DNA from: a virus
Taxonomy: Duplodnaviria > Caudoviricetes
Length of the DNA stretch: 64,000 nucleotides
Direction: 5' to 3' (one strand)
Virus record (IMG/VR): IMGVR_UViG_3300013426_000016
Coordinates: 64,001-128,000 of that record
Positions 36,732 to 64,000 of this stretch are shown here, one piece after another. Both the position numbers and the translations under genes were made by a program. Position 1 is the stretch's first letter; each line of letters opens with the position of its first letter. The notes beneath the pieces are model-generated. The model searched no databases and was not told the origin of the DNA. It was given only the letters and a program-made list of their open reading frames with translations.

Positions 36732-38612
36732 CTACCAATTTGTATTTGTAGGATCACTTAATTTTTCTTGTGCATACATAGCCTGTTGTCTGGCCACGTC
36801 TCTACCAGTAATATTAGTGTAATCAGTTTTAAATCTATACTCTGGATTATAAAGAGATGCTCCTATAACAGCATCAGAAATAGGTATATATACATTTGCT
36901 TTATAAAGATTCCTTTTAATAGCTCCACGTTTAAGCCCTAAGAAACCAGTTCCTATATCAGAGGTATTACGTTTATCAGCATTCTTGGCGTGATTAACAC
37001 TTCCATATTGTCCCATTTCTATATAGGCATCTAAAGAAGGCATATCGTCTTGTAGTAATTCATCAGCAGAAGCCATATAATCAGAAGGAGTAAAATCAAT
37101 AGCTTTAGAAGAAGCTACTCCCCCAAAAGTTAAGAAGGCTCTAGAACGGCTTTCTGGATATTTTACTAAACCAGTGCTTTCATCATATATAGCTCCAGGA
37201 CACACTTCTTGTAAATAACGATTTATAACAGAAGCATCTTCCCCTTTTTCTTTGCCGTTTTTAACTACGTTTTCTACCTTTTTAATTACTTCAAAATCTG
37301 GTATTACGTCTCTACCATTTTCTGCTGTTTTAGCAGGAAGTACAACTCTATACATATTAGAGCCATCATACATAATACCATCTAACTGGTTTCTATTAAT
37401 TACTTGGTCTCCAAAAACAACAGTGTCTGTGCCTACTTGTCTTATACCGTGAGCTTGCTCTAAGAGTTGTGCAACACTTACATTACTCATTGCTTGCCCT
37501 AAATTACCACTTCTATCATAAGCAACGGGACCCATATTTTGTCCATAAACAGATAAAGCAGTAGTAGACCCTCCTGTATATATAGGTATTCTTTGTGGTG
37601 CCGGTGCTCCTTCTCCAGTAGCATACATTTCTGGAACAGCCCCTTGTATTAATCCAGAGGCTCCACCTTCACTTCCGGAACCAGAAGTTCCACTTGCTTG
37701 TTTTTCATAAGAAGGCGTAATGGAACGCCCAGTACCATTAATAATAGTTTGTAAAAGAAATGCATGTGGATCAAATTTATTTACAGCAGCCTGTGCATAT
37801 AAATAACGTTTGTCCTTCTGAGGAAGAGCTGAAATTATATAATTTAAAGCAGTTTTAAGGTCCTTGTCTGCTTCTGTACCTTTTTCAGTAATTTTATAAA
37901 TACCATCCGGTCCTGTAGCAATTAAAGTAGAAGCATTATTTCCAGCCAAAGAAGAGTTTACTATTTCTTGCATTCCAGATAAAATATTCTTTCCTTGTTT
38001 TACAGCATATCCAGTAACCTCGGTTTCTTTATAATTTTTAATAATAGTATTTACATCACTTAAAACTGTGTCCATGCCGATAGCTCCAGAGACATCATCT
38101 AAAACACCATTATTAAAAGCTAAAGAAGAACTCTGTCTACGATAGTTTAATAAATCACCAAAAGTTAAAGGCATATATTTATTTGCATTCTTAGCATATT
38201 CTGTAGGAGAAATAGTAGTTAAACTCCCGTTTGCATCTACAGCATATAAGTTTCCAGCATTAGTAGTAGCAACTTCTCCCCAAGCATTATTTGTAGTCAG
38301 TGTTGCACGAGCTTTTTCATAATCTGCATAATTATTTGTAGCAGAAGTTGCCATTTGTGCAATACTTAAAAAATCTCTAGCGGTCAAATGATCTCCATTA
38401 GGATCACCAGCTAAATCTAAAGTCATTTGTATTTTATTCATTAACTGGCTCATGTCAGAGTCCAAACCTTTGGTTTTTAATAAATCAAATAAACTTTTTG
38501 TAAACTCAGAGGTTTTAGAAGAAGAGGCAGTATTTTGTTGTACTGCCTCTCCACTATTAGAACTCGTAGGAAGATATACTATACCTCCCGTCTGAAATGT
38601 TTTTATTTTCAT
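36732..38612 (-). CDS. Putative virion cargo protein, 626 aa
   Basis: Long ORF abutting both neighbours; begins MKIKTFQTGG. Confidence 0.8.
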   Translation of the reverse strand: MKIKTFQTGGIVYLPTSSNSGEAVQQNTASSSKTSEFTKSLFDLLKTKGLDSDMSQLMNKIQMTLDLAGDPNGDHLTARDFLSIAQMATSATNNYADYEKARATLTTNNAWGEVATTNAGNLYAVDANGSLTTISPTEYAKNANKYMPLTFGDLLNYRRQSSSLAFNNGVLDDVSGAIGMDTVLSDVNTIIKNYKETEVTGYAVKQGKNILSGMQEIVNSSLAGNNASTLIATGPDGIYKITEKGTEADKDLKTALNYIISALPQKDKRYLYAQAAVNKFDPHAFLLQTIINGTGRSITPSYEKQASGTSGSGSEGGASGLIQGAVPEMYATGEGAPAPQRIPIYTGGSTTALSVYGQNMGPVAYDRSGNLGQAMSNVSVAQLLEQAHGIRQVGTDTVVFGDQVINRNQLDGIMYDGSNMYRVVLPAKTAENGRDVIPDFEVIKKVENVVKNGKEKGEDASVINRYLQEVCPGAIYDESTGLVKYPESRSRAFLTFGGVASSKAIDFTPSDYMASADELLQDDMPSLDAYIEMGQYGSVNHAKNADKRNTSDIGTGFLGLKRGAIKRNLYKANVYIPISDAVIGASLYNPEYRFKTDYTNITGRDVARQQAMYAQEKLSDPTNTNW

Positions 38613-60517: not shown

Positions 60518-63500
60518 CTACTTAAAGAAAGAATCACGTGTCTCTGAACCCATCATGATCACTGATCTATATGGGTTAAACACAGCCACGCTTGCATAGC
60601 CCCAGTCAATGTATTTAACGCCAGCTACAGGAGAGGAAACAACTCCTCCTTGGAGTCCTGTAGCTCCACCTCATTTTACATTTTAATTATTTCTAATTAA
60701 ATCAGACTATATCTTTATCCTATATTCTATTACCGTCTATAGGACATTTCCCGTTTCCATCATTTAGATGTACTCTACTCCATTACTTCTTTTAAGATTT
60801 GCTTAAAAGTACTGTTTCGATAGTCGTTGAACTTTCGGTAGAGCTTCGTAATACGCTTGCATATCCTACCGCTTAGCTGCTGATTATCCAATCTTTAACA
60901 TTTTCACCTTTTAGGTAGTTAAAGCTATAAGGAACTCCCAGCAATTAGAGAAATTATTTTTTCTTAGTATTACTACTAAGTGGCGCAAGTGGTTTAGTTT
61001 ACGCCATTTACAATGTTCTGGATCAAATCTCCACCCTTAAAGGTGAAGTAACCGAGTGCAGGACGGCCCGTAGCTGCATCAGCAGTAAGGTCGATGATTG
61101 CACCAAACGCACGGTTAGGGAACTCTACATCAAAGCTCCTATCAAGCTTAACAAGAAGTGTGTTCTTTATTATTAACTATAATTATTTCTAATTATACTA
61201 GACTATATCTTTAACTTTCTTCTTTTACCGTTGAAAGTCATTTCCTGTTTCCATTATTAAAAAATGTACTCTACTGATTCTTTTTTAATATTTCTTTAAA
61301 AAAGAAATTTTCGATAGTCGTTGAACTTTCCCCACGTATAAAAGATACAGAGGGGCTTAGCTGCTGATTGACCAATCTTTATAATTTTTAAGCATTCACA
61401 CCTAATGTTTCCATTTATGTTATAGCTTATAAAGCTTAAGGTTTTTCCAGCAATTAAGGAAATTTATTATAAATAGATTTCTCTATTTAGGTGGCAACAC
61501 ATTTTACCACCATACTCGTAAGCAGAATACGTAGCTCCGAGCTTAATGTAGCCATTCTTTTCTTTAGAGTACAGGAAGGCGTTGTCAGACTTGTGCTCTA
61601 CAACCCACTTACCCATTACACTCTGCCACTGATTATAGAAGAAAGTGTTGCACATTAAAATGTACGTATTCCCTTGTGCCTTCTCAGACTTAGCGGACAT
61701 GGCCATAAGAGCCTTCTCAAAATAATCAATGGTAAGTTTGTTAAATACAAACTTGGTAGCGAAACGCTCTACCTGCGGTATTACCAATTTGTTAATATAG
61801 CATTGTTTATATGCTATTTCTTATACTTTTATTCGCATAAGATCAGACTATATCTTCACCTATATAGGTGACTCTTGTTCGTGAAGTTATATTATTCTTC
61901 TGGAGACATTAGTTTATATTCAAACTCGGGAAGTATATAAGGCCTTAATAAAGAAGACCATTTTCTACCTTCTCTAGTTCTACATTTTAAATAATATCTA
62001 ATTTCTCCTTTTTTATTTAGTTTTTTAATCGGATAAAAATTTATATCATATTTCTCTTTAAAGAAATCTATAATATTTTGGGTGTCTTCTGGATTAGTCA
62101 TAGTATAAAAATAGAAAGAATGAGAACGGATTTTTTTAGTTCCTTTATAATAGTCTTTTGCATGACTACCATCATCCATCCATCATAGAGCAATTGCTTC
62201 TGGAGTTAAATAGTTTAGCATTTTTCTACTAAACCTCTTTTCTCCACTTTTATATATCCATTTATATAATATTCTAAAATACCTATGCCCTTTACTTATT
62301 TTATAGGTATCTTTTTTTATTCTATGATATATACTTGGAAGTTTTCCACCTAATAAGGTAACAAGTAAGTTAGCCTTATATTCAAGGTAACTTTTTTGCT
62401 TACTTCCATGCTCTATTTCTAAAGCAACACCACTGTGAGCATTTAAATGCCCATCTCCTAAAATTAATCCAATTAAAAGTGCTTTTTTTCGTTTATCCAT
62501 ATAAAATGATAGTAATTACAATAATATAACTCTAGTCGTTACACCTTCCTTATATAAGGCTTGGCTCGGTATTCTCATCGCAGAGTTCACCGAATTAAAG
62601 AGTTTTTGCATAACTGATTTCTCAGTTAAGCGGCATAAAGTTTACCGTCCGTAGAAATGAGCGGCCTACCAATCTCGTCATAGCGTTAGACTATATCTTA
62701 TTCTATAAAGACTGTATATCTGATGTATTTCCATAAAAATATCTTCATCTTAAATTCTTACAAGTTTTACTTTTACCTTCTATAACATTATAAATAGGCC
62801 CCGGAGTTATATTCATATACTCAGCAGCTTCTTTAACATTTGTAAAAGATTTTATAAACTTGCCTTCTAAAGTATAAGATGCACAAGCTGTATTTTTCTT
62901 AGAGGCTCTTAAAGCAAATCTTTTCTTATAACTTCAAAAATAACCTCCAGCCTGTATTTGTTTATCCACACAAACTGCAAATATAGATTTATATGAAATG
63001 CCAGTTTGTCTGTCAGCCTCATGTAAAGACTTGTAATAAGTTATATAATTTCCTTGTAAATCAAACTGATAAACAACTTTTTCTCTGTTTTTACAAGGAG
63101 ATATGCTTTCAGTACTTCCCGTGAAAAACCTTCACTGAAAATCTTTGCATTTCCTTTCTTTTAAGCAAGCATCTCCAATACCACTTTTAGAAATACCTGT
63201 TTCTCTGGAAGCTTCGGAAATAGAGTTTCAAGTTTTTATAAAGTTACCTTCCAAATCATACTGATTAACTTGTTTTTCACTTACAGAAGAAGGAACTTTT
63301 CCTCCTAAACAACTATTATAAACATCTTTTCTCTTTATAAATTCTCTATTTACCAATTCGGCTTCTTTCTTATATGCTGCTATTTTACCCTTCTCTGTAC
63401 CAGGAAATTCATATAAAGTTTCCCTTACAAAATTATTTATTCCATATTTAATAACAGCTTTCTGAAAAACAGTAGAGTGTTTTTGCTTTAAATCTCCTTT

Positions 63501-64000
63501 ACAGGAAATTCCACAGCCTATATAACCATCGAAATCATCAGAAAGAGTACCGTGTACTCCTATATATATTTTACCATTTATGGTATTTGTTGTCTTGTAT
63601 ACTATATATTTTAGCATTAGATCTGAACTTTTAGTCGTTGAACATTTTCCTCTATGAGGAACCTTTGCTGCTGATTATCTAAATATTATTTTTTTCAGAC
63701 TTTCACACTTACTAAAAAGTTATGTTGTAGTAAATAATATATAAAGAACTCCCAGCAATTTGAACAGTTTTTAACTATACATTACTGCATAGAAAGACCT
63801 ATGATTGATCTTGGGCTTCCCGTCAGCCGAAACGTTGCCCTTACCCCAGGTAAGAGAATTGTTACGAGCTTCCATGAAGTTGTCAAGACAATCCTTTTCA
63901 GCAGGATTCATCTTGTAAACATGATCAGTAGATTCGTTACCTTTACCTATCTTAATGAAAACATCTTCCATACCAGCGTACTTAGCAGACATATCCACAT
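60518..64000 (-). CDS. Major capsid protein, 5'-partial; exons >64000-63808, 62683-62644, 61784-61506, 61164-61001, 60671-60518
   Basis: Spliced product ...DGKPKI-YDEIGRPLISTDG-VIPQVERF...AYEYGG-NTLLVKLDR...NIVNGV-GGATG...RDSFFK* is continuous; exon phases add up; biased codons; position at the head of the structural module. Confidence 0.88.
60672..61000 (-). mobile_element. Group I intron D of MCP (329 nt, ORF-less)
   Basis: P1 TGGCGT/GCGCCA; AATTGCTGG, AATCAGCAGC, TTCAACGACTA, AAGATATAGTCT; terminal G. Confidence 0.9.
61165..61505 (-). mobile_element. Group I intron C of MCP (341 nt, ORF-less)
   Basis: P1 GGTGGT/GCCACC; same core elements; P7.1/7.2-type insertion (IA-like); terminal G. 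Confidence 0.9.
61785..62643 (-). mobile_element. Group I intron B of MCP (859 nt), LAGLIDADG-encoding
   Basis: P1 CGGT/GCCG; GTAACGACTA, P8 CACCTATATAGGTG, AAGATATAGTCT; ORF enclosed by the GAGTTATATTATT/AATAATATAACTT stem. Confidence 0.9.
61892..62500 (-). CDS. Intron-encoded LAGLIDADG homing endonuclease, 202 aa
   Basis: LIGLILGDG and AIAL(W)WMDDGS, with TGA 62183 at the conserved Trp. Confidence 0.9.
62684..63807 (-). mobile_element. Group I intron A of MCP (1124 nt), GIY-YIG-encoding
   Basis: P1 AAGAT/GTCTT, P10 CATAG/CTATG; AATTGCTGG, AATCAGCAGC, TTCAACGACTA, AAGATATAGTCTAACG end. Confidence 0.88.
62703..63617 (-). CDS. Intron-encoded GIY-YIG homing endonuclease with three NUMOD1-like repeats, 304 aa
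   Basis: IVYKTTNTINGKIYIGVH; repeats VNQYDLEGNFIKT, VYQFDLQGNYITY, ASYTLEGKFIKS; four in-frame TGA; TAG at 62703. Confidence 0.88.

Follow-up and report, generated by a model that had tools for sequence, protein, structure and literature searches.

A Crassvirales major capsid gene interrupted by five group I introns, one of which ends without P9

Introduction

In group I splicing, guanosine attacks at a U.G site, the terminal G of the intron enters P7, and P10 aligns the 3′ exon. Phage introns of the RF00028 family that encode GIY-YIG or LAGLIDADG endonucleases share the P1 U.G pair, the P3-P8 core, the G-site of P7, the terminal G, P10 and ORFs placed in peripheral loops. Capsid genes interrupted by group I introns have been described in Crassvirales; Yutin et al. 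2021 (Fig. 7a) presented a Zeta-group capsid gene in five fragments from cMAG OLRF01000054 (PMC7886860). [quoted passage not shown] Those passages do not extend to intron structure, P9 loss or exon sizes.

Very short exons between group I introns have also been described. The orf142 gene of Staphylococcus phage Twort contains three group I introns and a 23-nt exon and undergoes exon skipping (PMC10136302, PMC11878797), and a 34-nt exon is present in the 23S rRNA gene of Coxiella (PMC10136302). The closest parallel at the level of intron structure is Pr.rnl.1 of the Prasinoderma coloniale mitochondrion, which lacks P9 and was called very unusual for the absence of an essential region (PMC3873408). 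This intron belongs to subgroup IB4, is trans-spliced within an organellar rRNA, possibly with a third RNA piece, and has too few 3′ nucleotides to form P9, while its same-site relatives have one (PMC3873408). Pr.rnl.1 was the only natural P9-less intron found in our literature search, whose coverage excluded many older papers.

Here we analyse a capsid gene in a 64,000-nt window, bases 64001-128000 of a 203,856-nt phage contig (IMG/VR record IMGVR_UViG_3300013426_000016). Multi-intron capsid genes and short exons are already known; the new part is a contiguous intron without P9, for which natural matched controls exist.

Results and discussion

The phage and its capsid gene

Long ORFs cover 82% of the contig under translation table 4 vs 63% under table 11, and a tRNA-Trp(TCA) gene, likely the TGA suppressor, is located at genome positions 38494-38568, outside the window. 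On these two grounds TGA is assigned to Trp. The genome has only four tRNA genes by ARAGORN, one of them a doubtful intron-containing call. Public runs containing the stretch have animal gut or faeces as their recorded source. The joined capsid protein shares 62% identity with that of a named Zeta genome, cMAG OHFV01000001, while its match to phiCrAss001 is barely detectable. Together with the large genome, the recoded stop with its suppressor tRNA and the many introns, all of them Zeta-group traits, capsid identity suggests a Zeta-like member of Crassvirales with TGA=Trp. As in the published Zeta phages, the capsid ORF is split into at least five fragments whose exons are spared recoded stops, although at 204 kb the genome exceeds the reported size range (PMC7886860).

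The capsid gene lies on the minus strand and extends past the window. The P1 U.G wobble, the terminal G and P10 defined the splice sites, after which a script joined the exons. Four introns lie in the window and a fifth just outside it. The features are as follows, in window coordinates:

63808..64000, minus strand: capsid exon, in-window 193 nt of a 713-nt exon; ends at the U of the intron A P1 wobble; Pfam Crass_capsid E 5e-4
62684..63807, minus strand: intron A, a 1124-nt group I intron that interrupts codon 265 in phase 2, has no P9/P9.0 and carries its ORF in loop L8
63794..63804, minus strand: internal guide of intron A, made up of the P10 strand (63804-63799), the wobble G (63798) and a P1 strand that reaches 63794
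62703..63617, minus strand: intron A ORF, 304-aa GIY-YIG-like/NUMOD1 homing endonuclease; all 4 of 4 Trp codons are TGA
62684..62693, minus strand: 3′ end of intron A, comprising the P7 3′ strand, the tether of 3 nt and the terminal G; site of the missing P9
62644..62683, minus strand: 40-nt micro-exon, one base plus 13 codons; nt 1-6 form P10 of intron A, last 4-5 nt belong to P1 of intron B
61785..62643, minus strand: intron B, an 859-nt group I intron that has both P9 and P9.1; ORF between P7 and the P3 3′ strand
61892..62500, minus strand: intron B ORF, 202-aa LAGLIDADG_2 endonuclease, E 2e-25; one TGA
61506..61784, minus strand: 279-nt exon, residues 279-371; interrupted by a further intron in some strains
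61165..61505, minus strand: intron C, group I, ORF-less, 341 nt; missing from some strains
61001..61164, minus strand: 164-nt exon
60672..61000, minus strand: intron D, group I, ORF-less, 329 nt
60518..60671, minus strand: last exon, 154 nt including the TAG stop

Beyond the window lie an 81-nt first exon and, after codon 27, the fifth intron, which is ORF-less and 244 nt long (genome 128764-128521; L001:5521-5764). The in-window introns (1124, 859, 341 and 329 nt) sum to 2653 nt and the in-window exons (193, 40, 279, 164 and 154 nt) to 830 nt, which agrees to the base with what a sequence-only reading had proposed for four group I introns. The Rfam RF00028 covariance model matches intron C with 75 bits, intron D with 74 and the upstream intron with 76 (gathering cut-off 50). 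Intron A (38 bits, E 2e-7) matches in part, as does intron B (23 bits, E 0.006); both stay under the gathering threshold because their ORFs split them. Both P7 strands and the terminal G are present in all five introns, and an insert between P7 and P3, at the P7.1/P7.2 position that is a trait of subgroup IA2, occurs in B, C and D and is missing from A, as judged by inspection. The five introns have 4, 6, 4, 6 and 6 contiguous P10 pairs, and no guide finds a better partner in another exon than in the one that follows its own intron.

The two endonuclease ORFs both depend on TGA=Trp, a difference from the known RF00028 phage introns with homing endonucleases. TGA encodes 4 of 4 Trp residues in the intron A ORF, 1 of 4 in the intron B ORF and 0 of 7 in the capsid exons. 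The intron A ORF scores 55.6 bits against TIGR01453 (cut-off 56.05), matches a PHROG homing endonuclease family with E 1e-26 and contains NUMOD1 repeats; Pfam GIY-YIG gives no match.

Joining of the exons yields a 476-aa protein without TGA codons, whereas retention of any intron ends translation early. Alignment to 15 intron-free homologues, with identities up to 72%, shows no gap at any junction. The 40-nt exon at 62683-62644, proposed earlier from the letters alone, is thus upheld, with 9 of its 13 residues identical to the best intron-free homologues. Natural alleles lacking exactly intron C (341 nt) or intron B (L183) corroborate the borders. The exon at 63808-64000 matches Pfam Crass_capsid (PF23898) under the curated cut-off, and full-length homologues carry PF23898. 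A profile of homologues matches gp32 in 7qof, the phiCrAss001 capsid (E 0.005), and a Foldseek search with the AlphaFold model of homologue P0001, a low-confidence model with mean pLDDT 50, returned phiCrAss001 capsid chains as the best matches (E 4e-12). Pfam, profile and fold similarity agree with the earlier identification, and the gene is a Crassvirales major capsid gene. Standard gene calling misses most of this protein, and it is mainly for annotation that the multi-intron gene matters.

The same reading had noted that introns are known in capsid genes of some Crassvirales, as the five-fragment Zeta gene bears out (PMC7886860), and had called four of them extreme. This does not hold against the published five-fragment gene and relatives with six to at least ten introns: we counted six capsid introns in L008 and in L185 and at least ten in L315 (L315:446-8148). 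Nor is the 40-nt exon extreme beside the 23 nt of Twort and the 34 nt of Coxiella (PMC10136302), or beside two exons among the relatives. One of these has 27 nt (L310:3039-3065), lies between two group I introns and restores the expected protein on joining; the other has 10 nt (L183:9076-9085), lies between two endonuclease-bearing group I introns and gives a joined translation matching the capsid, on one contig only. The 10-nt exon must act as P10 partner and as P1 strand nearly simultaneously.

Intron A ends without P9

The most unusual feature of the gene is one that the sequence-only reading did not mention, the missing P9 of intron A. Downstream of the S motif only 5 nt remain, namely the final base of P7, a tether of 3 nt and the terminal G, so that P9 and P9.0 cannot form. 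In the other four introns this span measures 33-62 nt and contains GNRA-type or longer hairpins; the upstream intron, B, C and D all have P9/P9.0 between P7 and the terminal G. Intron A is in this respect a P9-less variant of the RF00028 phage introns. The rest of its core is intact in P3-P7 and P4-P6, and P8 is weak, with about 4 bp vs 7-11 in most relatives. In P3, a 3-bp core shows covariation among 14 related introns, and since the 3′ strand of P3 directly follows P7, the ORF is placed in L8. A P3 built from the final endonuclease codons was rejected, as that pairing is broken in L183 and L313 and the strand right after P7 covaries instead.

An assembler error, or a dead intron in decay, could produce such an end, since an assembler or a recent mutation can delete a short hairpin. 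L184-L199, contigs of several studies and different assemblers, all show this same end, and ungapped contigs of three runs that carry their own SNPs span it (the read-run contigs examined were DNA-type, from four runs of one study). The major capsid gene is, moreover, present as one copy per genome. In L183 the P9-less state is retained with one tether base changed. The intron there is 85% identical; its ORF is intact, with 85 synonymous vs 33 non-synonymous codon differences, and P2 and the P5 extension show compensatory changes. Persistence of the P9-less state across this 15% divergence, with an intact ORF and compensatory changes, shows that it is not recent decay, and an artefact or dying intron is extremely improbable.

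Orthologous introns in L313 and L317, at the same site and with the same 3′ exon start, have kept a GAAA-capped P9; the guide is identical in the window, L183, L313 and L317. Related introns at other sites likewise have P9, and the P9-less intron A appears from these comparisons to be the derived form. P9 is also missing at site D in L108 and from an intron near codon 136 in L315, on one contig each, and these losses were probably independent of that in intron A. The L108 intron (L108:8567-9926) contains an endonuclease ORF, has 7 nt after the S motif and shows a P5 receptor without C-G pairs, and the L315 intron (about 1307-1544) is ORF-less. The P9-less introns have P10 lengths of 6 bp in the window, 7 in L183, 5 in L108 and 5+4 in L315. 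Pattern scans for further P9-less introns in L200-L279, L316 and L321-L331 gave only chance matches or hairpin-bearing introns.

The P5 receptor is altered in intron A compared with its same-site P9-bearing orthologues. By hand count, tandem C-G pairs (CC:GG) occur in P5 of 33 of 37 introns with a GNAA P9 vs 0 of 3 P9-less lineages, a difference with p 0.004 that is to be read knowing that the introns are related. CU:AG in P5 co-occurs with GNGA loops as well. The pattern is suggestive of a receptor decaying along with the loss of P9. A capsid intron at L008:2839-3037 has a 5-bp P9 whose loop is not of the GNRA type, and its P5 lacks C-G pairs; it is a possible intermediate of such a loss.

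Locating the 3′ splice site of intron A

We consider it highly probable that this is a single capsid gene whose five mobile group I introns remove themselves in cis to give one 476-aa protein, with intron A as a derived P9-less form whose 3′ site is set by P10 and the tether. Each intron would leave the late transcript through its own P1, P7 guanosine site and P10. The 3′ splice site of intron A would most likely be fixed by the perfect 6-bp P10 with the micro-exon, and the 3-nt tether would keep the terminal G beside P7. In-frame alternatives 15 or 18 nt into the micro-exon were rejected; by inspection they have no P10 and cost a near-invariant Asp. As had been noted earlier, the micro-exon serves both introns, with the 6-bp P10 of intron A and a 4-bp P1 strand of intron B.

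This closeness invites the idea that introns A and B form a coupled unit, in which the 3′ domain of B or the micro-exon supplies P9 to A and imposes a splicing order. The two introns are 40 nt apart with identical P7 3′ strands, and tandem introns can give rise to one chimeric ribozyme (PMC10136302). However, L183 carries the P9-less intron A without intron B and with a long next exon, which makes the P9-less state independent of B and largely refutes coupling, and intron B is found without A in L004 and L008. If A used the 3′ end of B, the micro-exon would also be lost and translation would end at codon 265. The micro-exon contains no conserved GNRA hairpin. A coupled unit is accordingly very unlikely. 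The 40-nt exon would instead be a mere gap between neighbouring insertion sites that were occupied independently; since introns come and go site by site among strains, it reflects the spacing of two homing sites and not a device.

How far intron A acts by itself is a separate question. Published work reports that group I splicing can do without P9.0 or without P10, though not without the two at once, and that an engineered Tetrahymena system in which an unstructured loop replaced P9.0 gave less than 4% product (PMC11417360). Reliance on P10 and a tether fits the first result; given the poor yield of the loop replacement, intron A may have protein help. The weak P8 also makes unaided self-splicing uncertain. 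We give an even chance to the strongest reading, that intron A is a contiguous ribozyme splicing an essential mRNA without P9/P9.0 by P10 alone with a 3-nt tether, that phage introns have repeatedly lost P9, after which their P5 receptor relaxed, and that P9 lies outside the obligatory core.

Alternatively, intron A may splice at the predicted junctions only with a phage or host protein (a maturase from its own ORF or an RNA chaperone) or with a separate RNA that replaces the L9-P5 brace. The missing P9, the weak P8 and the altered P5 receptor would fit such a need, what seem to be three independent P9 losses within a single group of phages point to a permissive background, and accessory factors were proposed for Pr.rnl.1 by Pombert 2013 (PMC3873408). 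On the other hand, the P3-P7 and P4-P6 core is intact, no candidate factor was identified, and the ORF-less P9-less intron of L315 means that a self-encoded maturase is no general answer. Splicing with outside help is a serious contender that we place somewhat below an even chance; it overlaps the self-contained account of P10 and tether and differs from it in autonomy only.

Pr.rnl.1 resembles intron A as a natural group I intron with P9-bearing same-site relatives (PMC3873408). Intron A differs in being contiguous, in residing in a phage mRNA, in having an intact endonuclease ORF and in occurring in two diverged phages. It is a natural test of the minimum RNA needed to locate an intron end, and the same-site pairs (window and L183 without P9 vs L313 and L317 with it) permit a direct test of the role of P9 in folding and in the choice of the 3′ splice site. 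Such pairs could also guide the design of smaller ribozymes for RNA circularisation or trans-splicing.

Consequences of skipping an exon

Skipping of the 279-nt exon keeps the frame, as had been pointed out together with the suggestion of isoforms, and the calculation stands. GGU is the 3′ end of the exon before each of introns I0, B and C, which allows weak cross-pairing, and skipping is documented in Twort orf142, in Coxiella 23S and in phage SIOphi, where it affects 47% of transcripts. A functional isoform, such as the 383-aa form without this exon, is nevertheless highly improbable. It would lose 93 conserved residues, near-invariant ones among them, in a region that ranks among the better predicted of the model; the P10 strand of intron B can form no more than 2 pairs with exon 4; and the skipped exon is itself split or fused in sister strains. 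Every other skip tested shifts the frame. Low-level skipping as waste is plausible, if a little short of an even call.

Twort orf142 is alike in being a structural gene of a phage in which a very short exon lies among several group I introns. There the flanking introns are near-identical IA2 introns, which favours skipping, whereas A and B are unlike each other in core layout, in their guides and in endonuclease family, and loss of the 40-nt exon shifts the frame.

Intron turnover at the capsid locus

Occupancy of the capsid sites varies among close relatives. No intron-bearing relative was found among GenBank phages, and alignment-based searches of the locus, which rank by score, return almost only intron-free genes and are unsuitable for intron frequencies. 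Intron C is missing in L184, in L189 and in about half of the contig depth of one sample, and L185 has an extra intron within the 279-nt exon. Both the intron C allele and its empty counterpart are present in run X4, in contigs of similar depth, and the flank of the empty allele differs, as if it had been recombined from another strain. In L181 a different intron sits 5 nt upstream of site A and leaves a 45-nt exon. This intron (L181:743-1907) and intron A (window 62684-63807) are related, endonuclease-bearing and never found together in these near-identical strains; they possibly compete for one homing target.
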